A stretch of DNA of 64,000 nucleotides from the IMG/VR virus record IMGVR_UViG_3300048778_000136, one strand, 5' to 3'. This DNA is from an uncultured virus (IMG/VR IMGVR_UViG_3300048778_000136). Taxonomy: Duplodnaviria; Heunggongvirae; Uroviricota; Caudoviricetes. Below the pieces are notes generated by a model, which saw only the letters and a program-made list of their open reading frames with translations, did no database searches and was not told where the DNA came from. Positions within the stretch are counted from its first letter, which is position 1. The number at the start of each line of letters is the position of its first letter. Made by a program: the position numbers and the translations under genes. Positions 12,914-63,943 of the stretch are shown piece after piece.

Positions 12914-13234
12914 TTAGCTTCGATATTGTCCTATTCGCGCCAGAACATTTCTAAGGACGCGTTCTTCCAACTCTCGTTCCTTCATCATGTCGAGAGTAGT
13001 TAGAACGCGGAACCTTTTTATGTCTGCAAACGTCACAGCAAACTGTCTTCCACAAGTAGGGCAGTGGCATCCTGATCCGAAGTACCACTGAAACCACGTC
13101 CCACATCCAAAGAATCCTGCGGGCTGACCTTGAAGCCTCAAAGCTATCTTCTCAGCCCACTGCTCATCCGTCATGTCATCCTTGCCGCCGTCGCATTGGC
13201 GCTGCAAGAGGATCGGGCCGATTACCTTATTCAT
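12914..13234 (-). CDS. Hypothetical Zn-finger protein carrying the AxxIAxRLxG tag
   Basis: AEKIALRLQG; CPTC. Confidence 0.55.
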   Translation of the reverse strand: MNKVIGPILLQRQCDGGKDDMTDEQWAEKIALRLQGQPAGFFGCGTWFQWYFGSGCHCPTCGRQFAVTFADIKRFRVLTTLDMMKERELEERVLRNVLARIGQYRS

Positions 13235-14766
13235 ACTTCTGCCGTCCGGAAAAGTGGGGAATCATTCTCTAGCACAAACTGTATCCTCGCCTTGGCGATA
13301 GCACAATATTCCTCTTCGCCTTCGATACCGATAAACTTGAATCCTTCATATAGTGCAGCCTTTCCCGTACTCCCACTTCCAGTAAAGGGGTCAAGGACTG
13401 TACCGTTAGGAGGAGTAACCAACTTGACTAAATATCTCATCAATGCTGTAGGTTTTACGGTAGGATGTGAGTTGCTTGAGTTGCTTGAGTTGCTTGAGTT
13501 GCGCTGATAAGCGTTGTCGTTTGGAGTTTCCCGTCCGTCGTGGCTGTATTGTTTTGGCTCTATATGCTCACATCCTTCGTTACGATCTTCCCCAGACGCC
13601 TTAGCACAATAGAAGAAACGTGCTGAGGAACCTGAATCGCCGCGTGGTGGAGTATCAGGTCTAGGGCCAAAGTTACCGTAGCAATTCACAGTATCCCTAT
13701 CTCCGTGCCGCTCTCCTACAAAACCTTGCTGACCATCGGAGTCAGGGAATGACGCCAATACTTCGTCTGACCCGTCGTGAATCACATTACTCGGCCATCT
13801 CCCGAGAGTATTCATCTCCTGCTCGTAGTCGGGTCGTTTCTCCTGTCCGAATCCAGACCATTGCTTTAGCTTATTGATAGGTACAGGTTCGCCTTCAATC
13901 CGGCATCCGTCGATATTAATTGCTCCCGTACCCCACTTTAATACGTTGCTGGCTATAGTCTTCTCTGAGATAGGTTTCCTAGCCACCACAACCAATTCCA
14001 TCGCCGGTTTTAATGCCGTTCCCCATCCGTCCCATTGTTGAGCATCTTCGGTCAATGGACGAGACTCTAAAATCCCACCTTTACTCTCGTACCCAAATCC
14101 ATTGCTCGTACTCGGTGCAGGCTTCCGATTAGCTCCGTCGTACTTTGACCGACTATCTTTCATAAATTGTCCCGGCCCCGCGCCAAATCCTTGCCCGATA
14201 GGATTATCTTCGGAACATCCACCTTTGTAATTTCCGTGGTTCTCACTGGTCGGGTCAGGACCACCTTGTGGAACCCCTCGCGCTGCCTTGTCGATGCTTT
14301 TTGCCACATCTAGACTTTTTGGGAAACCGCTCCCATATACCCAAGCAATTGAATCACGAATCTCAAATCCAGCATCCTCAATAGCGCACACAAGACGGTG
14401 GTATGTCCTTGTCCCACCCATCGCTAGGAGATATCCTCCCGGCTTCAGGAGTCGCATAGCCTTAGCCCAAGTCTCAGGCTGAAACGCTACGTCCCCTCCG
14501 TCCCAACTCTTCCCCATAAATCCGGTTGCCGCAGCGCGATAAGGATTAGTTCCTTGTCCGGGAATTGTCTTAGTAAAGTTTCGCTCAACATCGCCAGCGT
14601 TAGAATTCGCAAGCCGCTTTGTCATTGTGAGATGGTACGGAGGATCGGTAACAATCGAATCTACTGAGTTTTCTTCCAACTCAGGCATAACTTCGCGACA
14701 GTCTCCCTCATACAACTTCGCATCTGCACACTCCCAATATGGCGTCACGACGTGATCTGCATCCAT
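13231..14766 (-). CDS. DNA N6-adenine/N4-cytosine methyltransferase (beta class)
   Basis: VTDPPY catalytic motif, HPTVKP, VLDPFTGSGSTG SAM-binding motif. Confidence 0.92.
   Translation of the reverse strand: MDADHVVTPYWECADAKLYEGDCREVMPELEENSVDSIVTDPPYHLTMTKRLANSNAGDVERNFTKTIPGQGTNPYRAAATGFMGKSWDGGDVAFQPETWAKAMRLLKPGGYLLAMGGTRTYHRLVCAIEDAGFEIRDSIAWVYGSGFPKSLDVAKSIDKAARGVPQGGPDPTSENHGNYKGGCSEDNPIGQGFGAGPGQFMKDSRSKYDGANRKPAPSTSNGFGYESKGGILESRPLTEDAQQWDGWGTALKPAMELVVVARKPISEKTIASNVLKWGTGAINIDGCRIEGEPVPINKLKQWSGFGQEKRPDYEQEMNTLGRWPSNVIHDGSDEVLASFPDSDGQQGFVGERHGDRDTVNCYGNFGPRPDTPPRGDSGSSARFFYCAKASGEDRNEGCEHIEPKQYSHDGRETPNDNAYQRNSSNSSNSSNSHPTVKPTALMRYLVKLVTPPNGTVLDPFTGSGSTGKAALYEGFKFIGIEGEEEYCAIAKARIQFVLENDSPLFRTAEV
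13469..13502. repeat. 9-bp tandem repeat (GAGTTGCTT x about 3.8) inside the MTase gene
   Basis: Read directly; encodes NSSNSSNSSNS just before HPTVKP. Confidence 0.85.
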
Positions 14767-15176
14767 CCGTAGCTCCCTTTCGTTATAGTGCCTAGAGCTA
14801 TTCCGCTAGGCATTTCGTTCCCCGTACACTTCCTCGCTTTTTCAAAAGAACTCAGAAACACTATATCTCCAGTAGACAGATGTCCCTCTGCGTGGATCAT
14901 CTTGTATGTTCCTGCCGGGAGCTTAGGAGGTCCAAGTAATCTCTTGGCGACCTTAGCGGCTCTCTCCCTATCAAACTGAGTCAGCATCCTTTTGACGGAT
15001 TCACTAGAGAGGTCATATTCCATCAGATAACCTTGTAGTGGCAGGCGGGTTAAATGCGGCTGATCCTGATTCTCAAAGATGCGCCACAATTCTTTCTTTC
15101 CTAGCATGTCGATTGGGCGTCCTGTATTGAGTTGGTAGCCGTCAGGACAATTAGCTACGATACCCTTGCGCTTCAT
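14745..15176 (-). CDS. Hypothetical protein with VAKRLLG tag and cement-like C-terminus
   Basis: N-terminus paralogous to 15440-15682; C-terminal GIALGTITKGSYGWMQI. Confidence 0.6.
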   Translation of the reverse strand: MKRKGIVANCPDGYQLNTGRPIDMLGKKELWRIFENQDQPHLTRLPLQGYLMEYDLSSESVKRMLTQFDRERAAKVAKRLLGPPKLPAGTYKMIHAEGHLSTGDIVFLSSFEKARKCTGNEMPSGIALGTITKGSYGWMQITS

Positions 15177-15439
15177 ATTAACCCCAATGGAACAGGAAGA
15201 TCAGCCAAAGTGATTCTCTGACATTCGAGCGCAACTCGCATTGCAGTCTTTAGACTGCACGTTCCCGCCTTCTCAAAAATAGCCGCGTCCGCTAGGAGAG
15301 AACAAATCTCATTATCCTGCGCCTTGAACCGTAACCCGTCATACTCGAAAACTGTTCCGCGTTTCAATTTCTGAATACTATGATGCGGACAGGAATCTTG
15401 CTTTTTGTGTGGTTCTGCTCCATTCATACTTTCCTCCAC
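15173..15439 (-). CDS. Hypothetical protein
   Basis: Tightly packed ORF. Confidence 0.5.
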   Translation of the reverse strand: MEESMNGAEPHKKQDSCPHHSIQKLKRGTVFEYDGLRFKAQDNEICSLLADAAIFEKAGTCSLKTAMRVALECQRITLADLPVPLGLI

Positions 15440-15682
15440 TCACACAACTTTGTAATACAGCACTCTTCCCCACGCCTTCGGAACATGACCCGCGCAAGGA
15501 GTACCGTTGCCGTCGTCAATCAAATCCTGCGGAATTCTAGCTAAGTGAGGCTCTGCGTGATGTTCAAAGATGCGCCACAGTTCTGAGGTGCCTAGCATAT
15601 TGATAGCCTCCCCTCCGTTTACTGTGTAGCCCTCAGGACAGTTCGCGTGAACCTCTCGCCAGTTGATCTTTTCCTTGACCAT
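15440..15682 (-). CDS. Hypothetical protein, paralog of the 14745-15176 N-terminal domain
   Basis: ANCPEGY..N.G..I.MLG..ELWRIFE....PHL.R.P shared. Confidence 0.65.
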   Translation of the reverse strand: MVKEKINWREVHANCPEGYTVNGGEAINMLGTSELWRIFEHHAEPHLARIPQDLIDDGNGTPCAGHVPKAWGRVLYYKVV

Positions 15683-16517: not shown

Positions 16518-16594
16518 TGCAAGTCCTCTCTAGTGAAAGCACAAATATATTGCAAAACCAAATACTATGGCGGCAAAAGGAAGAAATATGTTCT

Positions 16595-16840
16595 TCATTG
16601 CAAGTCCTCCAAAACAGGAATCATCTCGCCTAAGTATCCCTTTACCTCGGCGTCGTCAGGCTCACGACCGTCCTTGTACGCCGCTTCAAAGCGCGTCAGG
16701 ATGTCGTGCATTTGCATTACTCCCTTTGACGCTGGAGCCTTCTCCATACGTTTCCTAGCCGCCGCTATGGTCGCCAGCATCTCAGCCTTCGTTGTCTTCC
16801 GGAATAGGCTCATTTTCCTTCTTTCCGCGTTCATATTCAT
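16595..16840 (-). CDS. Hypothetical protein
   Basis: ORF co-oriented with neighbours. Confidence 0.45.
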   Translation of the reverse strand: MNMNAERRKMSLFRKTTKAEMLATIAAARKRMEKAPASKGVMQMHDILTRFEAAYKDGREPDDAEVKGYLGEMIPVLEDLQ

Positions 16841-17765
16841 CTACGCACTCCTCAAAGTTCTTTCTAAGAGATTCCCTTGTCTCACCCCCATAACTATACA
16901 TAGCGCGAATTCCAAGGATACGACCGTGAAATATATCATCCTCGGAGTCGTAATTTACAGAACCTTCGAATCCTTTATAAACAAGCGTCTCGGCTATGCC
17001 CTTAGTGTCACTCATTATTTTACCTTCCTTCCCACGGCGATATGCCTCTAGAATGTTACCGTTAGCCTCCATTTTTGAAGGCTTTTCTGCCGTAGAGCGA
17101 AAGAATAGATCGTCAAGTTCTTCTGGAATTCTCGGTTTCTCTCGCAATTCAGGAGGTACCCAACCATGTCCTGCGCGGAATGCAAAATAAGCCGTATCTC
17201 TAAGGTCTTTCAATGCGATTGACTTATTGCTAAACCAATTCTGGTTATTAGTGCTCGCCCACCATGACTCGAAAGAGGATTTCAACTCCTTTGAAACGTC
17301 CTGATCCCACGCGATAGGATAATCCCTTACCGCCGATACTGTAGCGATAGGCTTCGTGTTCACGCTCTGACAGTAGACGCACCATGTTCCCTTTTCGCGC
17401 AACTGCTGCTTCCATGATCTCTTGCAATCGAGGCAATCATAGACGGTCATCTCTAGGTCATCCTTCGGTTTCGGGGATAGGAATATGCGGCGCACAAATT
17501 CACGTTGCCAATAGACTCCAGCTTCAAATGCTACCTTGTGAATTGGTGTGCATGTTTCGGAACAAGGAAAGGCTTCATGACATCCGTTGAATACTTGCGT
17601 AATCGTTGAAGTATCATTCTCTAATATCCAACGCAGTGCCTCTTCAAGAGTGCTTTCTATTTGGCTTGCCCCAACATCCTCTAAATGAATATCCTCATTA
17701 GGATAGCGTCCGAAGGTCATCATCGCCGCTTTCAAAATTTAATATGGAACTCTAATCTTGCTCAT
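16782..17765 (-). pseudogene. Composite ORF with an in-frame TAA at codon 9 and a C-terminal HicB-like domain (own ATG at 17015)
   Basis: CCGGGAG RBS then MSKIRVPY*ILKAAMM...; last 77 aa YKGFEGSVNYDSEDDIFHGRILGI...GET..L..NFEECVDEY resemble the HicB antitoxin N-domain. Confidence 0.55.
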
Positions 17766-17804
17766 CTCACTATCCTCCCGGATCACTGAATTATAACACT
17801 GCGC

Positions 17805-18333: not shown

Positions 18334-20487
18334 TTACCATCCGTCGCCCACGTCCATCTGATTTGCGCTTCCCGGACCCTTTGGGCGTTCCTTCTTCTTT
18401 GGCGGAGCGCTTCGTTGTTGAGCACGCTCTGTCAGAATGTCCATGTCGTGGGCCGTGAAATAGCTCTGCGCCGCAGCACGCACTCGGTCGTCATGCTGTC
18501 CTGAACGATGTTCCATCTTCGATTTTCCTGCGGACTCATGGCGTTCAAGAGTTCGTAACTCCTCAATCAGCCACTTCGACTTAGGAATATACCAACCACC
18601 GTTGACAGCCTCGCGGAAACGGTCCATTAACATCGGCACAGACCACGCGCTTGAATACCAGCCTTCCTTTTTGCCAGCGTCATCCTTGATCTTCTTTGAG
18701 TCATAGCGACGAGGCTTATGCATATTATTGAAACCTAACATCTTCAACTGATGCTGGCAGGTGTCACCGGGGCCTCTAATCTGTTCAATTACATACTTCA
18801 TCCCCTTGCCGTCAGGACTCTTCTTTCCGTACCACGCACCTACGCAGGCAGCGAAGGCTACGACTTGCGCCGAGTTCACTTTATTTGTAGTGTACTCAGC
18901 GCATTGCTGATCGCTATCTCCTTTGAACCTATTATTCGTTACGGAAAGTACAGTCCTATCCTCGTCCTCTTTACCTAAACCATCTGCTGTATCAACCCCA
19001 CAAGCATAATAGTTCCCACGCTCCGGTGGCTCGTAAACGAGCAGACGATCCATCGTATTACTCTCAATTGTTTCGTCCTGATCCTTGAGGGGAACCATTG
19101 TCCATTCATACTCCTGCCCACGAAACGACTTCCACTCGACTTTGATCTTTTCCTTCGTTTGGTCAATAGAGTCCGGGTCAGGATGAAAGATTTCATCTAC
19201 ATCGTGCCCCATGATGGCATAGGCTTGGACAGGAATGCGACGTTCCTTTATTTCCTTCCCACCTTCCATCCTCACTTCGTAGATGTTGTTCTCTACCTCC
19301 GCAATCACTTCGGGATCAAACACGCTGTCGTGAACACCAGTGAGGGCTTCAAAGTCATCCGCAGGCATCTGCGCGGCCCACGTCTTCTGTGTATGTGTTT
19401 TACAAGAGGTGTCATAGTTGAACTGCCAAAACCATTTCTGCTCAATCGGCATACGCCAGTCGCGTCCAGCAACCTTAGATAGATAAGGGGTATTGCGCAC
19501 GAACGATTCACATTTAATGACATGCTTTCTAGTTGTATCGTGGATTTGCGATTCAAACCCACCGGGAACAGGAAACTTACGAAGCCAATCCTGTTCTGGA
19601 TAAATGTCGGGGCACATCGCCCAAGGAATAAACACTGGACATAGCCGTGACTTTCCTTGCGGATAATCTTCCTTAGCCGCTCTCCAAGTCTCTGCAAGCC
19701 ACCCAGTGTTTCCACCGCCAGTTCCTTCGAGCACCATAAAAAGATTCTTCGATGAGTGAGTAGCTCGGAATAGTCCTTCTTCGATGGTTACTTTAGGGTT
19801 AGGGTAATCAGCCAATTCTGATAAATGTATACAAGTTGGTGTCCAACCTTGCGCTAGTCCTGTTGCCTGACTACCCGACTGGATAGATAGGATCGATTCA
19901 TTATCGAACTGGTTTTTCGAGGTGCGCCGAGGTACCAGCCACCAAGCAGAACGATTGTAAGCAGTGTCCAAAATCCTTCTGATTAGTTCCGAGCGTTCCT
20001 TCTGTACGGATGCCATGACCGCTTGGGTGTGTGGGATGAACAATAAGCGATGGATAAACTTGAGTGCCGTCTTTGTCGTGATACCCAATTGCCGAGCCTT
20101 AAGAATCAGCATTTCAATCGACACTTGCTTCTCGTCAAACTCGGCAATTACTGAGTCAAAAATCTCCTGAGAACGGCGATTCTTGAACTTAAACATCTGG
20201 CCCTTCTCATCGCAAACCCAAGCATAACGAGATTCCCAATAACTACTATCAAGCCCGCAAAGAACTTGCTCGTTCTGAATCCAATGCCTTATTTCTTTCT
20301 GCCTGCTCGCACTGATCTTTTTAGTAAGAAATATCTGACTGGTTTTCGAGTTAGACTCAACCCTCATTAGAGAGTCTATGTACTTCGTGAAGTCCAGCAC
20401 CTCATCATACGAGTGGTACCGGGGAAGCCATTTATTGACACTCTCGAATTCCTCTATATTAGAATTTACAGTCTTTGGAGAATACAC
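18334..20487 (-). CDS. terL: Terminase large subunit
   Basis: LKARQLGITT Walker A, IHLSE Walker B, EGTGGG coupling motif, GVDTADG and HDDRV nuclease motifs. Confidence 0.92.
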   Translation of the reverse strand: MYSPKTVNSNIEEFESVNKWLPRYHSYDEVLDFTKYIDSLMRVESNSKTSQIFLTKKISASRQKEIRHWIQNEQVLCGLDSSYWESRYAWVCDEKGQMFKFKNRRSQEIFDSVIAEFDEKQVSIEMLILKARQLGITTKTALKFIHRLLFIPHTQAVMASVQKERSELIRRILDTAYNRSAWWLVPRRTSKNQFDNESILSIQSGSQATGLAQGWTPTCIHLSELADYPNPKVTIEEGLFRATHSSKNLFMVLEGTGGGNTGWLAETWRAAKEDYPQGKSRLCPVFIPWAMCPDIYPEQDWLRKFPVPGGFESQIHDTTRKHVIKCESFVRNTPYLSKVAGRDWRMPIEQKWFWQFNYDTSCKTHTQKTWAAQMPADDFEALTGVHDSVFDPEVIAEVENNIYEVRMEGGKEIKERRIPVQAYAIMGHDVDEIFHPDPDSIDQTKEKIKVEWKSFRGQEYEWTMVPLKDQDETIESNTMDRLLVYEPPERGNYYACGVDTADGLGKEDEDRTVLSVTNNRFKGDSDQQCAEYTTNKVNSAQVVAFAACVGAWYGKKSPDGKGMKYVIEQIRGPGDTCQHQLKMLGFNNMHKPRRYDSKKIKDDAGKKEGWYSSAWSVPMLMDRFREAVNGGWYIPKSKWLIEELRTLERHESAGKSKMEHRSGQHDDRVRAAAQSYFTAHDMDILTERAQQRSAPPKKKERPKGPGSANQMDVGDGW

Positions 20488-34571: not shown

Positions 34572-35606
34572 ATGCAAGTTACACCCGCACAACTCTCTAC
34601 ACTCCTAACCGCTGCCGTTCCTGCCCGCTTGCCTGTTCTCATAACCGGCGCTCCGGGAATCGGTAAAACCGATATCGTGGAATTAACCGCTTCCCATCTT
34701 GGGTTTGACTTGCTTGTGTCTCACCCGGTTGTGTCAGACCCTACAGACTTTAAGGGTCTCCCGTTCGCTAATGGTCAGAGTACTGAAGCAACGTTTTTGC
34801 CGTTTGGCGACTTGTCACAAGCGATTAACGCGACCCGTCCTATGGTCTGGTTTTTCGATGATTTAGGGCAAGCTCCGCAGAGTGTGCAGTCCGCTTGTAT
34901 GCAGCTATTCCTTGCCCGCCGCATTAACGGTCACAAGGTCTCGGATCACGTTACATTCATCGGCGCAACTAACCGGCGCACCGACCGCGCCGGAGTATCG
35001 GGAATTTTAGAGCCTGTAAAATCCCGGTTCGCGTCCATTGTGGAATTAACTCCGGATATCGACTCATGGTCGCAGTGGGCGTTTGGTGCGGGCATCCCCG
35101 CAACCCTTATTGCTTTCCTGCGGTATAAACCGGACCTTCTATCCTTATTCGTTCCTACCGCCGATATGTCCAATAGTCCTATGCCGCGAACATGGTCAAA
35201 CCTCGCACGTTTGGAAGCTCTGAAGCTCCCGGACGCGGTAGAATTCGCCGCCTTTGCGGGAGCGGTTGGCGAGGGAGCGGCGGGAGAATATAAGGCGTTT
35301 AGGTCTATGTATCAGTCTCTTATCAGTGTAGACGCGATTCTAGCGGACCCCAGCGGTTGTACTCTCCCAACCCGTCCTAATGAACTGTATGCGATTGCAA
35401 CCGCCCTTGCATCCAAGGTCACTATCGAAAATCTCTCCCGCATTGTGACGATTGCCAACCGTTTGAACGATGCCGCGCGGGGAGAATTCGCCGTCCTGTT
35501 GCTGCGCGATTGCATCCGCCGTAACCCAAAGGTGCAACATACAGATACGTTTGTACGTATGTCCTGCGGTCCTATCGGTCAACTGCTTAGTGGTCAAGCG
35601 AACTAA
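34572..35606 (+). CDS. MoxR-like AAA+ ATPase
   Basis: GAPGIGKT Walker A, FFDDL Walker B, ATNR..D sensor, SRF Arg finger, PRTW sensor 2. Confidence 0.9.
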   Translation: MQVTPAQLSTLLTAAVPARLPVLITGAPGIGKTDIVELTASHLGFDLLVSHPVVSDPTDFKGLPFANGQSTEATFLPFGDLSQAINATRPMVWFFDDLGQAPQSVQSACMQLFLARRINGHKVSDHVTFIGATNRRTDRAGVSGILEPVKSRFASIVELTPDIDSWSQWAFGAGIPATLIAFLRYKPDLLSLFVPTADMSNSPMPRTWSNLARLEALKLPDAVEFAAFAGAVGEGAAGEYKAFRSMYQSLISVDAILADPSGCTLPTRPNELYAIATALASKVTIENLSRIVTIANRLNDAARGEFAVLLLRDCIRRNPKVQHTDTFVRMSCGPIGQLLSGQAN

Positions 35607-35641: not shown

Positions 35642-36511
35642 ATGGAAAACCCTCTTATCACTCGCGCAATGCTTTGTTCCCTAAGCATCTCCGCATGGTC
35701 CGCCCGCAAATACGATAAAAAGGTAACTCAAGAGACTAACACCGCACATAACGCCGCCGCCGATGCCGGACGGTACAATAAGCAACTGTTACCGGGGGAT
35801 GCCACTAGCTTTAAGGCTTTGACCTCGCATATTGCTAACGTCCGAGTGAAACACTACCGTGAGACGCTTGCATGGTCCGATGACGGCAAGCGTCTTTTGC
35901 CTATCGCGAACTTTCAGAATTACACGAACCTCATGCGGGCGGCGAAACATACATACGACGCTCTATTGTCTGATTTTCTCGCGGACTATCCGACACTTGC
36001 GGCAAATGCTCCCCAGCGGTTAAACGGGATGTATCGCGCGGACGACTTCCCATCCGTCTCTGATATTTCATCGAAGTTTGGGTTTTCCGTCACTTATGAT
36101 CCGGTCCCCAGCGGCGGGGATTTTCGTGTTGAACTCTCACAGGCTGAAATTGATATTCTCGCAACGAACTGTGAAAATCGCATGAAAACAGCATTTGAAG
36201 AGGCTCACAGAGACGCGGTTAAACGTCTCTTCGATTGTGTCTCCCGGATACATGAAAGACTCGCACAGCCTGAAGCGATTTTCAGGGATTCGCTTATCAG
36301 TAACGCGTCCGAACTATGCGACATCCTAACCCGCTTGAATATCTCAGGGGATGTCAATCTTGAGACGCTACGCGCGGCAACCGCAACACTCGCAACCGTG
36401 CAACCGGATACCCTTAGGAATGACGCTGTAACACGCATACAGGTCGCAAACGACGCGCAGGGTATCTTAGATTCAATATTGAACGTGTACGGGAAAGGAA
36501 TCGCGCAATGA
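35642..36511 (+). CDS. Helical protein (DUF3150-like) of the AAA+/VWA triad
   Basis: L.IS.WSARK.D...T, TL.W.D.G.RLLP, FRDSL..N..EL...L..LN..GD; sits between the AAA and VWA genes. Confidence 0.6.
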   Translation: MENPLITRAMLCSLSISAWSARKYDKKVTQETNTAHNAAADAGRYNKQLLPGDATSFKALTSHIANVRVKHYRETLAWSDDGKRLLPIANFQNYTNLMRAAKHTYDALLSDFLADYPTLAANAPQRLNGMYRADDFPSVSDISSKFGFSVTYDPVPSGGDFRVELSQAEIDILATNCENRMKTAFEEAHRDAVKRLFDCVSRIHERLAQPEAIFRDSLISNASELCDILTRLNISGDVNLETLRAATATLATVQPDTLRNDAVTRIQVANDAQGILDSILNVYGKGIAQ

Positions 36512-37665
36512 CCTCCCCCGCTCTTCAGAAACTCACCGCCGCCCGCATTGACCTTGTATGCGACCAACCCTTTTTTGGTTCCCTCGCCCTATCCCTTAAA
36601 CTGGTAGAAGATACCACCTGCGAAACCGCATGGACGGACGGGAGGAGTCTCGGCTACAATCCGGCTTTTATCGAATCCTTGGACCATGATAAAACGGTTG
36701 GGCTAGTCGTGCATGAGGTTATGCATAACGCTATGGGCCATCCGTGGCGGCGGGATGCAAGGGATCATAGTCGCTTTAACGCAGCTTGCGACTATGCGAT
36801 TAACGGCGAGTTGCAATCTTGCGGGTTTTCTCTCCCCGCTGGGGGGCTATTCCCGGACGCGTCACAGCTTGGAAAGTCTGCGGAATACATTTATTCCCGT
36901 CTCCCCCAACCCAAACCGGGCAAGGATGGCAACGGCGGCGGCGCTGGTAACGGTCAACCGCAACCGGGCAAAGGTAAACCGGACCCAGCGGGCGAGGTCC
37001 GCGATGCACCAACGGGGAAGGATGCCGATGGTGAACCCGCTTCCACTGAAAGCGATTGGAAACAACGGACGGCGGCGGCGGCGCAAAGCGCAAAGATGCA
37101 GGGCAAACTGCCGGGAGGATTATCGCGGTTGATAGAAACCGCGCTGGTAACGCGCGTGGATATAAAGTCTCTACTCCTCAGATTTTTTACAGAGAGAGTG
37201 AAGTCTGATTATTCATGGACTCGTCCGAACCCGCGTTATGTCTCATCCGGGCTATACCTGCCCGCGCTTGACTCTGTGAGTATGGGGGAGGTTGCTATTC
37301 TCTGCGACACGTCCGGGAGCGTCACCGGACCCGCGCTGCAATTCGCAAAGGGGATTTTAGAACAGGTATTAGATGAGGTCCGCCCGTCCGGTATCACCCT
37401 GTACTTTGTAGACACTAAAATCCATGGGACGCATCGCATGGAACCGGGAGACCCGTTGACATGGGAACCAAAGGGGTTTGGCGGTACGAACTTCACCAGT
37501 TTCTTTAAGGAGATAGAGCAAAGCGAAAACCCGCCTGTATGCATCGTTGGTATCAGCGACCTCGCCGCAACGTTTGGGGATGCTCCCACCGCTCCCGTCC
37601 TATGGATTACAGATACACCGGGAGCAACCGCACCGTTTGGGGAGGTTGTCTTTGTTGACCGCTAG
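36508..37665 (+). CDS. DUF2201-type metallopeptidase + VWA domain protein
   Basis: TAWTDG, HEVMH zincin motif, N.A.DYAIN, DTSGS MIDAS, GGGT-like GFGGTNF, SDL. Confidence 0.88.
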   Translation: MTSPALQKLTAARIDLVCDQPFFGSLALSLKLVEDTTCETAWTDGRSLGYNPAFIESLDHDKTVGLVVHEVMHNAMGHPWRRDARDHSRFNAACDYAINGELQSCGFSLPAGGLFPDASQLGKSAEYIYSRLPQPKPGKDGNGGGAGNGQPQPGKGKPDPAGEVRDAPTGKDADGEPASTESDWKQRTAAAAQSAKMQGKLPGGLSRLIETALVTRVDIKSLLLRFFTERVKSDYSWTRPNPRYVSSGLYLPALDSVSMGEVAILCDTSGSVTGPALQFAKGILEQVLDEVRPSGITLYFVDTKIHGTHRMEPGDPLTWEPKGFGGTNFTSFFKEIEQSENPPVCIVGISDLAATFGDAPTAPVLWITDTPGATAPFGEVVFVDR

Positions 37666-37759: not shown

Positions 37760-38125
37760 ATGCGGCATAGCGGGATACAGGGAGAGAAAACTAAACACTG
37801 GGGGAGGGAGAGGGATTTAATGCAGAGAGACCTCGCGCGGGTTATATTCCTAGCCGTCCGGGATGCTCTGTATGCTCCCGCGCGTCCTGATAGTAAGCGG
37901 CAGGAAAGGCGGAGACAGAGAGACCTCGCCCGCCATGGTGCAAGGATCATGAAAGCATCTGGGGAAGTCTATTGCGCAGGAAAGTCTACTAACGCAAGGA
38001 AAGAACTGCGGCGGGAGATGCGCGAGGTTAGGGAGCGGATGAGGGAGGAGATGCGACGGGAACAATTGAAGATGGCTCGCATGGTTGCGGATAGGCTAAT
38101 GGGGAGGAGGAGACATGCAGCATGA
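37760..38125 (+). CDS. Arg-rich hypothetical protein with VADRLMG tag
   Basis: CCGGGAGG RBS; tag near C-terminus. Confidence 0.6.
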   Translation: MRHSGIQGEKTKHWGRERDLMQRDLARVIFLAVRDALYAPARPDSKRQERRRQRDLARHGARIMKASGEVYCAGKSTNARKELRREMREVRERMREEMRREQLKMARMVADRLMGRRRHAA

Positions 38126-38357
38126 GGAGGATGAGGTTTACACGGAATGGCTCGCCGCCGCTCCCAAGGGCGTTAGGTGGGATAAAGCGCAGGAGATGTA
38201 CCAGCTTTATCAGGAACGGCGCAGGGAGCAAGCGGAGAACGTAGCTAAACGTCTCATGGGGAGTCCTATCGTTCCAAAGGATAGAGCATCATTCGATAGT
38301 GTAGAGACGGCAATAAGGGAAGCTGAAAGGCTAGGACTTATTCCTAGTTCGCGATAG
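38115..38357 (+). CDS. Hypothetical protein with VAKRLMG tag
   Basis: GGAGGAG RBS. Confidence 0.6.
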   Translation: MQHEEDEVYTEWLAAAPKGVRWDKAQEMYQLYQERRREQAENVAKRLMGSPIVPKDRASFDSVETAIREAERLGLIPSSR

Positions 38358-46665: not shown

Positions 46666-46911
46666 ATGATTCAAGACATTACTATCCCGGCTCGTCTATG
46701 CCAGTGCGAGGCGCTTTTGAATGACGGTACGCCTTGTCTTTATGAGTGGATTTCAATTGCAACCTTACCACCCACGCACTGTATGAACCGGGAGTGCCGA
46801 AGCCGGGAATGGAACGGGAAGAAACCGAAGCGAGTACCTGAAAAGAAAGCAGTAGTGATCCTGCCGAAGCCAATCAAGGTTCGAGGAATAGAGGAAGATG
46901 AAGACTTCTAA
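46666..46911 (+). CDS. Zn ribbon protein
   Basis: CQC...C..EW......P..C....C.S..WN. Confidence 0.6.
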   Translation: MIQDITIPARLCQCEALLNDGTPCLYEWISIATLPPTHCMNRECRSREWNGKKPKRVPEKKAVVILPKPIKVRGIEEDEDF

Positions 46912-47083
46912 AAAGAGTGGGCGTCAGCGTCGGCGGGACAATAAAGAACAGTACAAAGCTAGACAGGTAGCGGCTCGGTTGTTAGGATTTTATCTTTACA
47001 AATGCTCCCATTGCGGCGAGGATTATAAGTCTAAAGTGGGCGATCTAAAGTTTCCTTGTTGTGACGAATGCATACCCTTTTAG
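46898..47083 (+). CDS. Small Zn-finger protein with VAARLLG tag
   Basis: KARQVAARLLG then CSHC...CDEC. Confidence 0.6.
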   Translation: MKTSKKSGRQRRRDNKEQYKARQVAARLLGFYLYKCSHCGEDYKSKVGDLKFPCCDECIPF

Positions 47084-47092
47084 GAGAAAATA

Positions 47093-47314
47093 ATGGCTCG
47101 TAACTGGCCCAGAGATCAACAACGTCGCTACAGGGAAGAGCGTAGGAAGCAAGCCGCCCGCGTTGCTGATCGGTTGATGGGTAAGAAGAAATCGCCAATT
47201 TTCGGAGAATCTAGAATACGATCACCTTTTCAGTATCAGGATTCGACGAACTTCTATAACAACACTGTACGACCGTCACTAGTTCCGTGGGAGCTAGGGA
47301 ATGAGGTGAAGTAA
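47093..47314 (+). CDS. Small protein with VADRLMG tag
   Basis: AGGAG RBS; QAARVADRLMG. Confidence 0.6.
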   Translation: MARNWPRDQQRRYREERRKQAARVADRLMGKKKSPIFGESRIRSPFQYQDSTNFYNNTVRPSLVPWELGNEVK

Positions 47315-48006
47315 TGAGCGAAAATTCCGCAGTAGCGTACATGCGTTGTAGTGGGGCCTCGCAGGTAGATCGTGATTCCTTCCCGCGTCAGACCTCCTCG
47401 ATTGCGTCTTGCTGCCGTTCCAAGGGCCTAGAGTTGATCCGGGAGTACAGGGAAGAGGCTGTGCCGGGTAAGTTTGATGAGGAGCACCGTCCTGCCTTCC
47501 AACGGATGATTAGTGACCTACTAGGCAACGGATGCCGCACCATAGTAATTGAGGGTATGTCCAGACTGGCGAGGGAATATCGAACACAGGAGCACTTGAT
47601 AATTTACATCGCCAGTAAGGGAATTACCCTCATCTCAGCCGACACAGGAGAAGATATCACAGCGGCAATGATGGGTGATCCTATGCGCCGTGCTCTCGTC
47701 CAGATTCAGGGAATTTTTTCGGAGCTAGATAAGAATCTTCTCGTAGCTAAACTGCGCAAGGCGAGAGAGCGTCAACGAGCTACTACCGGGAGATCAGAGG
47801 GCCAAAAACCCTACGGCGATAAGCCCGGTGAAGCTGACTCCCTTGCAATGATGCGAAGCCTACGGGCGGCAGGACTCTCGTGCGACAAGATTGCGGATGC
47901 GTTGAACGAGAACGGAGTACCGGCGCGTAGGAAGGGAATCAAGAACTACAGTGGCCTATGGCTTGGATGCACTGTAAATCGCATCTTGAAAAGGGAGGCG
48001 GCGTGA
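47314..48006 (+). CDS. Serine recombinase (resolvase/invertase size)
   Basis: AYMRCS...Q.....RQ, RPAF..M, SRLAR; C-terminal IA..LN..G.P.R....W....V.RIL. Confidence 0.88.
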   Translation: MSENSAVAYMRCSGASQVDRDSFPRQTSSIASCCRSKGLELIREYREEAVPGKFDEEHRPAFQRMISDLLGNGCRTIVIEGMSRLAREYRTQEHLIIYIASKGITLISADTGEDITAAMMGDPMRRALVQIQGIFSELDKNLLVAKLRKARERQRATTGRSEGQKPYGDKPGEADSLAMMRSLRAAGLSCDKIADALNENGVPARRKGIKNYSGLWLGCTVNRILKREAA

Positions 48007-48284
48007 AATTGATTTGGTACAACCGCGATAGCATCTCAGACCAAGATATGCGGCAGGCGAAGGCTGTAGCGGAGAGGCTGTTGGGAAAGAAGGAATTCGA
48101 TACTCCCCTGTTGCCATTTTTCAGTGGGGCTACAATGCAGGTTCCAATTATGTATGGCTACTCTGCAAATCATCCTAATAAGGCCCCACTACAGACTCCT
48201 GTTCCGCCGTTTGATTGGGGTTGGGAGCCTGCCCCTCAATGGGCAAAGGACGCGAAGGAAGATGATCGTAAGCGGGAGGCGTAA
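48003..48284 (+). CDS. Small protein with VAERLLG tag
   Basis: GTGA overlap; QAKAVAERLLG. Confidence 0.6.
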   Translation: MKLIWYNRDSISDQDMRQAKAVAERLLGKKEFDTPLLPFFSGATMQVPIMYGYSANHPNKAPLQTPVPPFDWGWEPAPQWAKDAKEDDRKREA

Positions 48285-48498
48285 TGAAGATTGACTACAC
48301 CAAGCTAACGTGGAAGCAGATGTCTAACATCGTCCTGTCCGTCCACAAGGAAATGAAACGTAGAAATCCCATTGGGATAAACTGCTACGCGAACTATGTT
48401 GAAGTTGCGGCAGCGGCTCTTCTGGAAATATCCGGAGGCGAGGCCGATAACTTTACCAGCGAGCATGGGCCTAAAGAACCGAAGTGGAGGAAGAAAAA

Positions 48499-49113
48499 AT
48501 GAACACAGGAACAGTCGTTAACTTTCCAGAATTTACAGGTATCCGCTGCTTGATGATGCCTTACGCTCAGGGCTACTCAGCATCGGTTCCAGAGGAATAC
48601 CACGCCTACAAAGAGATCATCGATTCCGTGTTTCTGGAGAAGGGTAAGATTGGTTTCCTGACCATCGACGAGAGTCCTGTCCGCGCCGGGAAGCCGCACC
48701 GTGGTGACCGTGCTCGGTATGGCCGCGCTCTTCACACCGAGGCAGGGCAGATACCGGGAACGGTTACCTATCGCTGGGGAGGAAACTGGGGAGGACGCGA
48801 GAACGTCATGCTACGACCGGAAGTCCGCATTCTCCTAGCGAACAATCTCGACGAGTCCTGCGCGGTGTGGGATGTCACACACGAACCTACATCGCCTGAC
48901 GGCGATATCGGGGACGCGGCAGGACTTTACCCTTACGAGGCCGCTACGTTCCTGAAGGCTGGTGAGGTGCATGACATCGGTATCCTGACTCCGCATGAGA
49001 GCCTTCCTGTCGCACAGGATTTCAACCGCCAGTTCCTGCGGATTGTCGGTGCCGGAGTCTCTGGGCGAGAGGAATACTTTACTCAGAACCCGCTTGTGCC
49101 GTGGTGTTTATGA
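48499..49113 (+). CDS. Putative 2OG-Fe(II) dioxygenase-like (double-stranded beta helix) protein
   Basis: LTIDE..V..G..HR...LHTE ... TPHESLP...RQF.R: HxE...H...R pattern. Confidence 0.5.
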   Translation: MNTGTVVNFPEFTGIRCLMMPYAQGYSASVPEEYHAYKEIIDSVFLEKGKIGFLTIDESPVRAGKPHRGDRARYGRALHTEAGQIPGTVTYRWGGNWGGRENVMLRPEVRILLANNLDESCAVWDVTHEPTSPDGDIGDAAGLYPYEAATFLKAGEVHDIGILTPHESLPVAQDFNRQFLRIVGAGVSGREEYFTQNPLVPWCL

Positions 49114-49350
49114 TGAAACTTAAAGACAAATTTGTTGCTAGGCTCATAGAGATACAAAACGATCCGATTTTACAAGAAAAACGGGAAGTATATTTTTAAC
49201 AAAAAAGGGCAGAGGAAGTCGCACGAAGACTGCTTGGACACAAGCACCTAATGTGTGCCACTTGTGGAGTCAAACAGGCCATACAGCTTGACGCAGAACC
49301 ACCGAAGTATTGCCACTCGTGTTGGTTGGACGAAAGAGCTAAACGTAAGG
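49113..49350 (+). pseudogene. Tagged Zn-finger gene interrupted by an in-frame TAA (49197-99)
   Basis: MKLKDKF...REVYF*QKRAEEVARRLLGHKHLMCATCG...YCHSC. Confidence 0.55.
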
Positions 49351-49926
49351 CTACTGAACTACCGGAGCGGTCTGTTGCGCCGAAGGATCAGTGACAGAGA
49401 ACAAGGGAGTCTTACGCTTTTGAGAGAGTAGTTCCGCAAGACGTGTTAAGTCCCTTTTCCATATTCCGTGGCGCTGAATGATATCATTAAAGTCCTCGAA
49501 ATCGTGGCCTCGAACACGAAATAAATAGCGCCCACGTTCGTCTACTTCGTGCTCACCTGTCTCGCCGTTGTAGGTTGGGGCGGCATGGCAGCATTCGTGA
49601 TCCAAGAGAGCAATCTGCTGCTCCTTCGTAACAGCAAGGTCTTCCCAAAACTCTTTGTTCAAAGTGATAATAAAGTCGTAGTCCGCATACTCGCGGTATA
49701 AGTCAGAGACTTTAATGCACTTGCCTAGGACAATATGACCATCCTTGTCCGCCTTCGTCCTAAGTCGCCATGCTAAGGCGATACGAGCCTCCTTGATGTC
49801 TCCGTGGTGCTTATCTCGAACCTCTTTAAGTAGATTGTATGGGGCTGGAACAAGACCATTAGCATCCTGTTCGGGGATGATGAGGAAGTTGATTTTCTTC
49901 CCGGTTTTCACTTTCTTCGGTGCCAT
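49351..49926 (-). CDS. Phage putative metallopeptidase
   Basis: LGKC.K....YDFII.LN...W......Q.ALLDHECCH...HD.E.F..I..RHG.W. Confidence 0.8.
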   Translation of the reverse strand: MAPKKVKTGKKINFLIIPEQDANGLVPAPYNLLKEVRDKHHGDIKEARIALAWRLRTKADKDGHIVLGKCIKVSDLYREYADYDFIITLNKEFWEDLAVTKEQQIALLDHECCHAAPTYNGETGEHEVDERGRYLFRVRGHDFEDFNDIIQRHGIWKRDLTRLAELLSQKRKTPLFSVTDPSAQQTAPVVQ

Positions 49927-49927
49927 T

Positions 49928-50368
49928 CTATTCTCCCGTTCCTACAGCAGCAATGAACAAAATTCTCTTCATGATAGCACGATGCGCAGAGTTTGGGAAG
50001 AGGTTCCAATCATCGCAAAAGATAGGAAGTCCTTGGTCGGAAGGGATATAAAGATTCTCCGCGCTCAACAGCTTAGGCTTGTTCACCTCTTCGCCCTCCA
50101 GCTTCTCCCCTAAAAGACGTTTAGCTACCACGTCAACATAGCTGATCTCATTCGATATAAGCCAGTGAAGCCTAATAATGTTCGCGTGATCCGCTTTAGT
50201 TGGAGTTACCACGGCAAATCGACCGTTAGGATATCTCTCTTCGGCATATCGCATTAGCTCAGTAGTTTTTCCGCATCGGGGAGGAGCTGTGATAATAGTC
50301 CTTCCGCGAGTCCTCAAGAGCTTGGCTATCTCCTCGGCGTTTGCGGCTTCGCGGTAGTGAATACTCAT
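49928..50368 (-). CDS. Miniature P-loop (terminase/helicase-like) protein with VAKRLLG tag
   Basis: TAPPRCGKTT, VVTPT, IFCDDW; paralog of 50365-50844; ATG 50368 overlaps the upstream stop. Confidence 0.65.
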   Translation of the reverse strand: MSIHYREAANAEEIAKLLRTRGRTIITAPPRCGKTTELMRYAEERYPNGRFAVVTPTKADHANIIRLHWLISNEISYVDVVAKRLLGEKLEGEEVNKPKLLSAENLYIPSDQGLPIFCDDWNLFPNSAHRAIMKRILFIAAVGTGE

Positions 50369-50844
50369 GATGTTACGGATGCAACAAGCAAACCAGAGTC
50401 GATTATAGCTCTCCGTGCGTCCTCTGGGAAAAGATTCCACTCATCGCAGAATACTAATCTACCTTGGCCGCGCAGGAGTTGCAAATTTGTTGGAGTCAAC
50501 ATGAGTGGAGGGTTGGTATCCGGTTCTGTTATTTTCAACCCATTGAGTCTTTTGGCTATATTGCCAGCATTAAATAATTCCCTGTGCCGAAGAATGATTT
50601 TCCCTTGTACCTCTTGGTTAAGACATACAACACAATATGAGTTACGGTGTTTTTCTTCGGCATATCTCAGAAGTTCGGTCGTCTTTCCGATCTGGCGCGG
50701 TGCTGTGATGATGATAGGCTCAGGAGTAATCGCTTTGATGGTAACTTTCTCTTCATCGTCCCATCCTTCCGACCTGCGACTCTCTTGGCTTGATCGTAAG
50801 AGCCTTGCAATATCCTGTGCCGACTCTGCATTGACGTAGATCAT
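50365..50844 (-). CDS. Miniature P-loop (terminase/helicase-like) protein with IAKRLNG tag
   Basis: TAPRQIGKTT, LRG, VFCDEW. Confidence 0.65.
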   Translation of the reverse strand: MIYVNAESAQDIARLLRSSQESRRSEGWDDEEKVTIKAITPEPIIITAPRQIGKTTELLRYAEEKHRNSYCVVCLNQEVQGKIILRHRELFNAGNIAKRLNGLKITEPDTNPPLMLTPTNLQLLRGQGRLVFCDEWNLFPEDARRAIIDSGLLVASVTS

Positions 50845-58020: not shown

Positions 58021-58055
58021 TTCGTTTTTCCTTTTCTGTGATGCTAATGTTGGTA

Positions 58056-58214
58056 CTAAAATTCTTCCAAAGCCTTTTTGATTGCATCGCGGAGTCCGTC
58101 TTGATCGAGGACGTAACCGATGCCTACGTAGACCCAGACTTTATACTCATCTTCCGTTATTTGATTGACGATTACTTCAGTCAATCCCTCTAAATGGTCA
58201 CCTTCGAATTTCAT
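58056..58214 (-). CDS. Hypothetical protein (52 aa)
   Basis: Hand translation, ATGA overlap. Confidence 0.45.
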   Translation of the reverse strand: MKFEGDHLEGLTEVIVNQITEDEYKVWVYVGIGYVLDQDGLRDAIKKALEEF

Positions 58215-58594
58215 TTCGACACCTTCCCTTTCAATCTATCCGCTACCGCAACCGCCGCAGGATCAGGCTTGGCTTCATTCCAAAACGTGTTTCCGTGAAC
58301 TATCTTGCCGTTTTCGGAGTGGAAAACGAGATGATCCATCCCGTCGCAGATTCTTACTTCAAATCCTTTCCCAACAGCAACATCTGCAAATTGCTTAGCT
58401 CTGGAAAATGAGATTTCCTCGGCTGGATATTTGGCTGCTCCTGCCCTAAACCAAAGTCCTCCTTCATGAAATCCTTGATCGTTGAAAATATATACCTTCC
58501 AAGGCCCTTTGCCTACGTCTTCGGCGCGGATCAGGTCATTCAGTTCGATCACTTCCGCGTCAGGAAACTTCGCTCGGAGGGCTGCCATGTTCAT
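58211..58594 (-). CDS. Hypothetical protein with C-terminal VADRLKG tag
   Basis: CCGGGAGG RBS; AVAVADRLKG. Confidence 0.6.
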   Translation of the reverse strand: MNMAALRAKFPDAEVIELNDLIRAEDVGKGPWKVYIFNDQGFHEGGLWFRAGAAKYPAEEISFSRAKQFADVAVGKGFEVRICDGMDHLVFHSENGKIVHGNTFWNEAKPDPAAVAVADRLKGKVSK

Positions 58595-62325: not shown

Positions 62326-62343
62326 ATAACAGGGAGGAAAGTC

Positions 62344-62703
62344 ATGGGAGTGAAGCAGGTTTATCCAGAGGCATATGAAGACGAGCGCGGCATGATTTGG
62401 GTTTCAGAGGAAGCCTCTCGCCAGATGACGGAATCCTACGAAGATGCTTGGATTGAGGATGTTCTTGGTTGGTCATGGGAGGATGCCGAAGAGAATCTAG
62501 CCCTATGCCAGCGTGAAGCCAAGCGTAAAAAGTTCTGGAAATCACATCCTCATCTGCGGGTATTTTACTGGTTTATCCGCCGCTGGTATGGTGCTATGTC
62601 ACTGTTTTCGCGTACAGTGTGGCGTGATTGGTATGGGCGTATCACTTGGTCGATGGCATGGAAGATGTCGAGTGATCTATGGCTAACGGAGAGGCCCAAA
62701 TGA
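62344..62703 (+). CDS. Trp-rich hypothetical protein
   Basis: GGGAGG RBS. Confidence 0.55.
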   Translation: MGVKQVYPEAYEDERGMIWVSEEASRQMTESYEDAWIEDVLGWSWEDAEENLALCQREAKRKKFWKSHPHLRVFYWFIRRWYGAMSLFSRTVWRDWYGRITWSMAWKMSSDLWLTERPK

Positions 62704-63035
62704 ATTCTCCTATCCGCCGTAGCCCAATCCGTAAAGTTCGTAGCAAGCCCCGACCCGGAAGGCTCAAAGGGGACGATATGGACGAACTCCGTCAGGCCGT
62801 ATACACCCGAGACTTGGGACTCTGCCAGCGTTGCGGAATTACTACCATCTTCGGAGCGCCGGAGGAATGGGATAACAGCTTTCACCTCGCGCATCGTAAG
62901 GGTAAGCGTATGTGGGGTGACAGTTTAGAAACAACAGAAATTAACTGCGGGAAATGCCATCGACGCTTTCACAATTTTGGCCCGTCGATGGAAAAACCAT
63001 GTCCTCCGAAACCGAAAAGTATTGACACAGATTAG
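62700..63035 (+). CDS. HNH-like nuclease
   Basis: V..RD.G.CQRCG...AH.K.K..G......CG.CH...H. Confidence 0.7.
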   Translation: MNSPIRRSPIRKVRSKPRPGRLKGDDMDELRQAVYTRDLGLCQRCGITTIFGAPEEWDNSFHLAHRKGKRMWGDSLETTEINCGKCHRRFHNFGPSMEKPCPPKPKSIDTD

Positions 63036-63065
63036 ATCGTAGGCGCAGGATATGAACATGTAGGG

Positions 63066-63608
63066 ATGGGAGATAAACCAATGGAGCCTAAACAGAACCC
63101 ACTAAGTGAGAACGAGTGGAGCATTGAGGAGCGCGAGGAATTCTTCGCTGGACAGGATGCCATGACAGGACTCTTCTCTAATATGGTAGCTAACAACGGA
63201 ACTATACCTAAGCCGACAGGAATTCACGTCACGCACATCGTCCCTCCAGATCAGGGATGGCCTATTGCGATGCACTGCCCTATCTGCAAGGAAACTACCT
63301 TTATCTGGTCGCTTTGGGCTATAAAGCCGAAGGATGGAGACTACTGGCGGATGACTGAAACTTGCGCACGCAGCAACCAGCACAACATAGAACTGGCGAT
63401 GAATCCATTCGCTTACCGCCCTCTTCCCGGTGGCTACATGGACGCAACAGTGCCGCACCGTGGCTCTCCGCCTTCGATAAACGCGTTCTCCCTCCATAGC
63501 ATAATGATGTTCGACCCTTACGACGCCGTAATAGAGCAGGAGATGCCTATTGAAGAGGCCAAGAGACGGTTTTCTAACACTCTTATTGGCGGACAGGAGA
63601 AGCCATGA
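63066..63608 (+). CDS. Hypothetical protein
   Basis: 180 aa ORF, preceded by TTGACA at 63022. Confidence 0.5.
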   Translation: MGDKPMEPKQNPLSENEWSIEEREEFFAGQDAMTGLFSNMVANNGTIPKPTGIHVTHIVPPDQGWPIAMHCPICKETTFIWSLWAIKPKDGDYWRMTETCARSNQHNIELAMNPFAYRPLPGGYMDATVPHRGSPPSINAFSLHSIMMFDPYDAVIEQEMPIEEAKRRFSNTLIGGQEKP

Positions 63609-63943
63609 GCGATTGTGCAAAGTGCGATAAACCTGTCAATGTTCCTGACGGCTATGAGTTCAACGAAGGTGATATGTGCTGGCCTTGCATGGCTAAGGAA
63701 GTCGAAGAGGAGTTATTACTAAGAGAACGCTTGAGCGCGATCTTGGACGCCACCGCCAACGCTCTACATGGAGGCCCAATGAAAAATGGTTTGTGGTCCT
63801 TTCACGACCTCCCAGAACTCGCTCTTGAAGCTATGAATCGCATTGCTAAGCTGGAAGATTGTATCCGTGAACTCCTAAAGGGTGCAGATGGATTCAATGC
63901 GGTAGTGAAAAAAGAAGAGGCCGCAAGGAAACTTCTAGGATAA
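63605..63943 (+). CDS. Hypothetical protein ending in AARKLLG
   Basis: ATGA overlap; L...ANAL.G......S.HDLPE. Confidence 0.55.
   Translation: MSDCAKCDKPVNVPDGYEFNEGDMCWPCMAKEVEEELLLRERLSAILDATANALHGGPMKNGLWSFHDLPELALEAMNRIAKLEDCIRELLKGADGFNAVVKKEEAARKLLG

Follow-up and report, generated by a model that had tools for sequence, protein, structure and literature searches.

A clade-specific portable peptide tag on small proteins of uncultured tailed phages

Introduction

In eukaryotes, it is well known that short docking motifs gather many proteins around one hub, while few such motifs are known in phages. In the uncultured virus IMGVR_UViG_3300048778_000136 (IMG/VR; Caudoviricetes), a peptide of the type A-x-x-[VI]-A-x-R-L-[LM]-G recurs in small proteins. 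The stretch analysed, referred to as the window in the following, comprises 64,000 nucleotides (nt) and is a section of one tailed-phage genome. A sequence-only reading of this window had listed 12 copies of the peptide in mostly unrelated proteins and had proposed a modular docking or addressing signal. This raises the question whether the peptide is a unit of its own, and what it would do on so many different proteins. As described below, it is a clade-specific portable peptide tag, undescribed as far as our searches reach.

Occurrence of the motif

Each of the 12 listed sites translates to the peptide that had been given for it, and 11 of them fit the pattern [VI]-A-x-R-L-x-G. In the six-frame translation of the window, [VI]A.RL.G was found 11 times, always in the coding strand and frame of an open reading frame (ORF), and the out-of-frame control gave no match in the non-coding frames. 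The called ORFs (n=120, 19,879 amino acids (aa)) contain nine matches compared to a mean of 0.054 in 1000 within-protein shuffles, of which 946 gave no match and 54 gave one. Two further copies lie in ORFs that were skipped by the greedy ORF call, namely 50365-50844 (-) and the start-less frame 49200-49394 (+). All nine matches belong to the 90 proteins of up to 200 aa and none to the 30 larger ones, as expected from the earlier observation that the large proteins lack the motif. This enrichment shows that the tag is real and not a product of chance.

A profile of the tagged module recovered exactly the 11 window copies (E <= 5e-4), the next match having an E of 8. The twelfth site, AARKLLG at 63920-63940 (+) at the end of a 112-aa protein, was missed by this profile, and the ortholog of the protein in the related locus L072 ends about 28 residues before it; this site is not supported as a copy. 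As background, 448,595 nt from 67 loci of relatives contained eight matches. Six of these lie in the close relatives L001 and L004, and the other two stand out of context, which is about the chance expectation.

The free variation of the codons, which had been noticed before, was confirmed. The DNA of the copies has a mean identity of 42% with a longest common exact run of 8 nt, and the Arg codons AGR and CGN as well as the Leu codons CTN and TTR are all used among them. A DNA repeat or recombination site is ruled out by this low identity and by the mixed codon families. The use of both Arg and both Leu codon families points to long-term selection for the exact residues in each context.

Constant heads and swapped tails

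A profile search in 5.8 billion proteins (E <= 0.01) yielded 51 small proteins, four of them from the window itself. All 51 lack a Pfam domain and a name, and 50 of them show the motif or differ from it by one residue. These proteins sort into three head families, in which the tag ends each constant N-terminal head and homology stops directly after the Gly.

In family 1, the 49-aa head is nearly invariant in a 26-sequence alignment with conserved columns from E11 to G49, followed by tails that cannot be aligned. The window member is an 80-aa protein (38115-38357, +), whose 49-aa constant head ends in VAKRLMG (38241-38261) before a variable tail. Compared to the family-1 gene of L001, 13 synonymous and 8 non-synonymous differences were found in the 43 codons of the head from EVY to Gly, and zero identical codons after the Gly. 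Family 2 comprises a 33-aa Arg-rich head, counted from the first Met, which is invariant in a 13-sequence alignment and is combined with several tail types. It is represented in the window by a 73-aa protein (47093-47314, +; MARNW..RRYREERRKQAARVADRLMGKKK, tag at 47162-47182), whose tail is variable. In family 3 (P0008, P0038, P0040) the head is shorter, and its window member (48003-48284, +; VAERLLG at 48066-48086) carries a tail related to family 2. The latter gene likely begins at GTG 48003, overlapping the stop codon of the recombinase gene.

Several unrelated kinds of tail were found; in family 1, a DnaJ-like CxxCxGxG zinc knuckle is the most frequent one. Matches of the family-1 tails to Pfam were weak, with PF00684 at E <= 0.05 in 5 of 26 members (best 9.5e-4) and Anti-TRAP (PF15777) in 1 of 26. 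The family-1 head had no Pfam match in any of the 26 members. In the ESM Atlas, the nearest named cluster was likewise Anti-TRAP at a score of 0.80, which is a lead only, and no cluster reached 0.9. The idea that the tagged mini-proteins are copies of pieces of structural proteins was rejected, since a match of the 47093 tail to a 328-aa protein (8442-9428, E 0.0014) was lost with the family profile. A search for longer proteins with a fused module (164-2000 aa), which is rated as weak evidence, gave none at E <= 0.1.

Two small carriers combine the tag with a zinc ribbon (E 2.5e-4 to each other). The first is a 61-aa protein (46898-47083, +) with an Arg-rich N-terminus, VAARLLG at 46967-46987 and a CxxC...CC zinc-ribbon-like tail. 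The second is the start-less frame (49200-49394, +), in which VARRLLG (49218-49238) is followed by a CxxC...CxxC ribbon. This copy has no upstream start codon: an in-frame TAA at 49197-49199 separates the tagged frame from a 32-aa ORF in the same frame (49101-49199), and the first ATG at 49251 comes after the tag. Contigs from two DNA runs show the same TAA, and the frame could be a relic or be expressed by read-through or from a non-canonical start. RNA-library contigs from two runs span parts of 47457-49947, with 49207-49411 and 49242-49533 overlapping this frame; DNA carry-over is possible, so that these contigs are not taken as evidence of expression.

Based on these comparisons, the earlier description of the carriers as mostly unrelated has to be corrected, as several are paralogs that share constant heads of 30-49 aa and differ in swapped tails. 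Accordingly, the statement that the flanks are unrelated except for one paralog pair holds for the C-terminal side and fails for the N-terminal side of the head families. About 30 aa of head are common to the genes at 38115 and 47093 (E 4e-6), and the genes at 47093 and 47958 have common tails (E 5e-6). Moreover, P0005 and P0006 are chimeras of a family-1 head with tails that belong to downstream paralogs in L001, and therefore recombination inside the module has reshuffled heads and tails.

A further mosaic was observed for the ORF at 14745-15176 (-), which was assigned by translation and by the module profile and carries VAKRLLG (14931-14951) in the middle of 143 aa (120 aa if started at the Met used by cluster P0043). 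Over residues 6-47 it is paralogous to an 80-aa protein encoded two genes upstream (15440-15682, -; E 1.8e-15). The gene is therefore a composite in which the module stands between a duplicated N-terminal part and a new tail.

The core as an independent unit

Outside the head families, the tag was found on proteins of other build. A 127-aa protein in the RecT/nuclease block (58211-58594, -) carries it in a C-terminal tail, PDPAAVAVADRLKGKVSK, with the tag at 58226-58246. In relatives of 58-100% identity, the strict C-terminal tag follows a Pro-rich linker in 21 of 23 cases, the two exceptions having an M for V and a different end. Among 13 homologs from IMG/VR, the tail is present only in L072 (62% identity); the other 12 (38-53% identity) are without it, and eleven of these end shortly after a conserved FW motif. 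Judged by these sequences, the tag was added to the C-terminus of a wider 127-aa family only in this clade. In one locus, L075, an unrelated Cys-rich C-terminal extension (9935-10459, +) stands where the tag would be, and therefore the C-terminus of the family accepts different add-ons.

The second C-terminal carrier is a 121-aa Arg-rich protein (37760-38125, +), encoded directly after the DUF2201 peptidase/VWA gene, in which VADRLMG (38084-38104) lies six residues from the C-terminus. Its orthologs retain the C-terminal tag as IATRLMG in L001 and as CAARLLG, with V replaced by C, in L013. The codons that follow the tag in this gene (Gly-Arg-Arg-Arg, 38095-38117, +) include the GGAGG ribosome-binding site of the next gene, which overlaps with it and starts with ATG at 38115. 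Starts that overlap upstream stops were also seen at 50365-50368 (ATGA) and 48003-48006 (GTGA), which suggests translational coupling.

An internal tag was found in a small P-loop protein (49928-50368, -; VAKRLLG at 50108-50128), whose ATG at 50368 overlaps the upstream stop, and at the same internal position in its 159-aa paralog (50365-50844, -; IAKRLNG at 50539-50559; E 2e-27). This family has 16 representatives among 1.84 billion proteins, with the strict motif at the internal site in seven, a variant in five and none in four. In P0055, an N-terminal insert that precedes the Walker A strand contains a second copy, P0060 is tagged in this insert only, and P0056 carries one at the extreme N-terminus, so that the family bears the tag at three different positions. 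In tag-less loci, the corresponding site of a distant P-loop homolog is an ordinary helix. The remaining carrier of the window is a Cys-rich small protein of 106 aa (12914-13234, -) with IALRLQG at residue 30 (13127-13147).

Altogether, the tag has about nine protein contexts, in which it lies near the N-terminus, inside the protein or at the C-terminus. The genomes and loci compared have either several tagged proteins or none. L072 encodes four within 20 kb, i.e. the 127-aa ortholog, two P-loop paralogs and one family-2 member, and the 12 tag-less loci, fragments of 14-20 kb whose lack of the tag does not equal its absence from the genome, gave no match to the module profile at E < 1. The motif is retained in orthologs through synonymous change, with exceptions in the IMG/VR fragment G002.

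These data allow domain shuffling to be weighed as an explanation that needs no shared partner. The motif would then be the C-terminal end or hinge of an ancestral helical module, which spread by duplication and recombination among small genes and was retained for folding or self-association. Such an origin would fit the homology of the heads of families 1-3 over 20-49 aa, the clean break after the Gly, the chimeras of one head with the tail of another paralog and the mosaic gene at 14745, as well as the helix that is already present at the tag site of distant P-loop homologs. However, the unrelated contexts have only the ten-residue core in common, and this core also occurs as a bare tail after a Pro-rich linker and in the extra P-loop inserts, i.e. 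in places where no folding element would be needed. In addition, the use of both Arg and both Leu codon families points to selection on the exact residues. We regard shuffling without a common partner as rather unlikely.

Anatomy of the motif

For the anatomy of the motif, 14 distinct contexts were aligned, consisting of the 11 window copies and three extra positions from relatives of the P-loop proteins. V or I at position 0, Ala at +1, Arg at +3, Leu at +4 and Gly at +6 are each present in 14 of 14 contexts, Ala at -3 in 13 and L or M at +5 in 11. The expected Ala at -3 was also confirmed for the window, where it is present in 10 of the 11 strict copies. Lys or Arg was found at +7 in six and at +8 in eight of the 14 contexts, and upstream of -3 no position is conserved across them. 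The shared core, A-x-x-[VI]-A-x-R-L-[LM]-G, ends a helix and is usually followed by Lys or Arg. Based on their spacing, positions -3, 0, +1, +4 and +5 would share one helical face. The AlphaFold model of family 1 (predicted local distance difference test (pLDDT) 69) shows a helix of residues 22-47 that terminates at the motif, and the low-confidence model of the 127-aa family (pLDDT 53) shows a coil linker followed by a terminal helix of residues 112-121.

A basic amphipathic helix followed by Lys or Arg could also serve to tether its carriers to a non-protein ligand, either nucleic acid, comparable to an arginine-rich motif, or a membrane surface. This would be in line with the strongly Arg/Glu-rich helix that ends in the tag in families 1 and 2 and in the genes at 37760 and 46898, with the Lys or Arg often found after the Gly, and with neighbours such as RecT, RusA, PD-(D/E)XK nuclease, SMC-like ATPase, DnaB and serine recombinase. 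Yet the Arg-rich stretch lies outside the shared core and is missing from the 127-aa family and the P-loop copies. The invariant residues are small hydrophobics and one Arg, which would form a poor membrane anchor and are unlike a generic nucleic-acid binder. An arginine-rich motif of the lambda N type was rejected, as hhalign of family 2 against lambda N gave a probability of 0.4% over 8 aligned columns. A non-protein ligand is considered improbable on these grounds.

Interpretation as a docking tag

The portable tag may be a docking motif for one clade-specific partner, and we give this reading about an even chance. It is favoured because the constraint acts on the peptide, the conserved residues would form one helical face, the position within the protein is free, and the core is gained and lost as a unit and co-occurs on several proteins of the same locus. 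According to this reading, a ten-residue amphipathic helix end would act as docking tag on many small accessory proteins in a clade of uncultured phages of about 100-120 kb from peat and permafrost samples, and the tagged proteins would all bind a common partner, which might be either a machine encoded by the phage or a hub of the host. The conserved face (Ala-3, Val0, Ala+1, Leu+4 and Leu+5, together with Arg+3 and the Gly cap) would form the macromolecule-binding surface, and the variable parts, such as the zinc knuckles, the P-loop ATPase and the other tails, would represent cargo or effector ends. Of the earlier proposal of a modular docking or addressing signal, the peptide-level, position-free and co-occurring module that is present in orthologs thus holds, and the partner was not found.

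Several observations weigh against this interpretation. No partner was found, so that binding is inferred. Some of the motif sharing is plain paralogy, since the motif lies within homologous heads of 30-49 aa in three families, and the internal tag of the P-loop proteins could be structural, since distant homologs have a motif-less helix at this position. In G002, the ortholog of the gene at 12914 carries the variant IAGKLNG, in which Arg is replaced by Lys, and the ortholog of the gene at 14745 shares the first 24 aa only and is without the tag and the whole second half. Furthermore, the tag-negative loci used for comparison are short fragments, and the confidence of the two structure models is modest for family 1 and low for the 127-aa family.

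As a more specific possibility, the tag could be an address label for a dedicated machine of the clade. Such a machine might load the tagged proteins into the capsid for injection, or the AAA+ and HExxH-VWA proteins might, as an unfoldase-protease directed by the tag, set how long accessory proteins persist. The head and tail families would then be a cassette system in which new cargo evolves fast on a fixed handle. We consider this elaboration possible but rather unlikely.

Independent of its function, the tag offers an unusually clean evolutionary signal, since it is gained, lost and moved as a unit and marks the exact breakpoint of tail swaps. Comparing the termini of orthologs between tag-positive and tag-negative relatives can serve as a route to discover such tags. 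If a partner is found, some ten orphan gene families of a phage lineage that is abundant in peat and permafrost would be given a function, and a portable handle of 10-12 residues would be available to direct cargo in that system.

Neighbouring peptidases

The AAA+/VWA-peptidase machine had been named as a possible partner, because two tagged genes directly follow it. The region comprises an AAA+ ATPase (34572-35606, +; Pfam), a 289-aa protein (35642-36511, +) and a DUF2201_N HExxH peptidase with a VWA-like domain (36508-37665, +; Pfam), all of which are given as context only. Tagged genes after the DUF2201 gene number two in the window, five in L001 before the contig ends and one in L013, and they were also found in L004. 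Among 67 peptidase-centred loci, only L001, L004 and L013 gave matches to the module profile at E < 0.05. The loci L008, L011 and L014 (about 57% identity, 10-14 kb of flank) contained no tag, and homologs of the DUF2201 peptidase were found in 625 records of cultured phages; the two head families tested had no match among cultured phages. Gene adjacency is hence the only link between the tag and this peptidase, because its homologs are widespread where the tag is absent, and the proposal of the machine as partner is not supported beyond it. A complex prediction of the DUF2201 peptidase/VWA protein with residues 1-60 of the family-1 head gave no verdict, with a score of 0.00 and a mark of 0.32 in a run without controls; it speaks neither for nor against binding. 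The shortlist of genes confined to tag-positive loci was too small and fragmentary to name a partner. In L009, the gene that follows a DUF2201 gene of about 56% identity (2173-2571, +) encodes a tandem array of an 11-residue repeat of the S-Q-R-L-S-W-W-N-G-L-D/T type.

A second peptidase, the putative phage metallopeptidase PF18894 (49351-49926, -; E 4e-25), is encoded immediately downstream of the two tagged P-loop genes. The tag could thus be a processing signal, i.e. a cleavage or recognition site for the DUF2201 HExxH/VWA protein with its AAA+ neighbour or for the PF18894 peptidase, in a leader-then-cargo arrangement in which cleavage would free or activate the variable tails. The constant head, the conserved junction ending in Gly and the hypervariable tails are compatible with such processing, as are the tagged genes directly after the DUF2201 gene in the window, L001, L004 and L013, the two P-loop genes directly before the PF18894 gene, and the presence of the latter peptidase in the tag-positive L072 (73% identity). 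In contrast, the 127-aa family and the protein at 37760 would lose just 2-6 residues after the Gly, cleavage at the internal tag of the P-loop proteins would divide their fold, and the residue after the Gly is highly variable. The wide distribution of DUF2201 homologs where the tag is absent also argues against this explanation, and no enzyme of the RiPP type (ribosomally synthesised and post-translationally modified peptides) or C39 type was found in the window by Pfam. Processing as the role of the tag therefore appears quite doubtful, and the docking tag remains the reading followed here.

Searches in databases and literature

The Pfam scan covered 121 window proteins, with the frame at 49200 scanned against PHROGs only. 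At E <= 0.01, no Pfam family was found over the motif in the 11 carriers scanned. A Tsc35 match below this threshold overlapped the tag in the gene at 37760, and AAA_14 and AAA_35 matched the Walker A region in the gene at 50365. The search of the 12 proteins against PHROGs gave no E better than 0.0045, the best matches lying in zinc-ribbon or P-loop parts. Neither tblastn with four carriers as queries (50,697 phage records) nor Foldseek with the family-1 model (PDB) gave a match, and profile searches of families 1 and 2 in the PDB gave nothing better than E = 0.16. A scan of IMG/VR with a three-sequence alignment of the module resulted in 109 pattern matches, none of which was confirmed, and the same scan with family 1 returned only the contig already known.

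Four peptide strings searched for did not occur in the papers covered. A search on short linear motifs in phages found nothing relevant, and of four papers that mention DUF2201 none appeared to be functional, judged by the titles and the beginnings of abstracts.

Genomic context and habitat

The minus-strand block at 1-21,400 contains the large terminase (18334-20487; PHROG E 1.7e-10), a weak match to a major head protein (7162-8406) and a DNA methylase. This 511-aa DNA methyltransferase (13231-14766, -) lies between two tagged genes and matches PF01555 in two separated stretches. Within the structural block, a 329-aa protein (4649-5638, -) showed an Ice-binding-like domain (PF11999, E 4.6e-32) and may be a tail fibre or adhesin. 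In a 317-aa protein (16782-17735, -), residues 249-302 form a HicB-like antitoxin segment (PHROG E 4e-13), and a zinc ribbon was matched weakly. The remaining window comprises many small ORFs and, according to Pfam, genes of DNA metabolism, which are serine recombinase, HNH, ParB-like, RusA, SMC-like ATPase, PD-(D/E)XK nuclease, RecT and DnaB.

No cultured phage close to the window at the DNA level was found. Two IMG/VR fragments are related to it, the near-identical G001 with 31.9 kb and an estimated completeness of 27%, and G002 with 46.7 kb and 45%. Since these estimates imply it, the full genome is taken to be roughly 100-120 kb. Profile scans of genome contigs with family 1 and the 127-aa family gave no match and hence no clue to a prophage or host.

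The region 46800-50600 was found nearly word for word (share 0.96-1.00) in 16 DNA runs with peat or permafrost metagenome labels, dated 2018-2025, of which 15 may be source samples. The lineage is therefore widely distributed in this habitat and stable there.

Comparison with known systems

The sliding-clamp-binding peptides of bacterial and T4-type replication and repair proteins, with the consensus Q-L-[SD]-L-F, dock all their carriers on one hub. The tag resembles them as one short peptide on many unrelated proteins, which is N-terminal, internal or C-terminal after a linker. In contrast to them it has no Gln, contains an invariant Arg and Gly and is predicted to be helical, so that it differs from the clamp consensus, and Pfam identified no clamp gene in the window.

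Precursors of RiPPs and of double-glycine bacteriocins consist of a conserved leader of 30-50 aa, which ends in a Gly-containing motif, and a hypervariable part. A conserved leader with a hypervariable core was likewise found in families 1, 2 and 3, together with tandem paralogs next to a peptidase. However, Pfam detected no modifying enzyme or C39 peptidase, the two metallopeptidases belong to other families, many tails are folded zinc knuckles, and the tag is also present at C-termini and inside an ATPase.

Polymorphic toxins show junction motifs such as VENN of CdiA and PxxxxDPxGL of Rhs. As in these, a short motif marks the exact joint of a constant N-terminal part and a swapped C-terminal part, and recombinant chimeras are formed. 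The carriers of the tag differ from them in their size of 50-170 aa and their cytoplasmic appearance, and Pfam found no toxin domain in the tails.

The internal proteins of T4 and the T-even phages are, according to PMC3012670, highly diverse small proteins whose capsid targeting sequence (CTS) is the only conserved part. A CTS is found at the N-terminus only and is cleaved off by the prohead protease, whereas the tag is C-terminal in the proteins at 37760 and 58211 and internal in those at 14745, 49928 and 50365. Compared to the T4 cargo, the carriers described here are known from sequence alone. The likeness between the two systems is that varied small phage proteins have only a short peptide in common.

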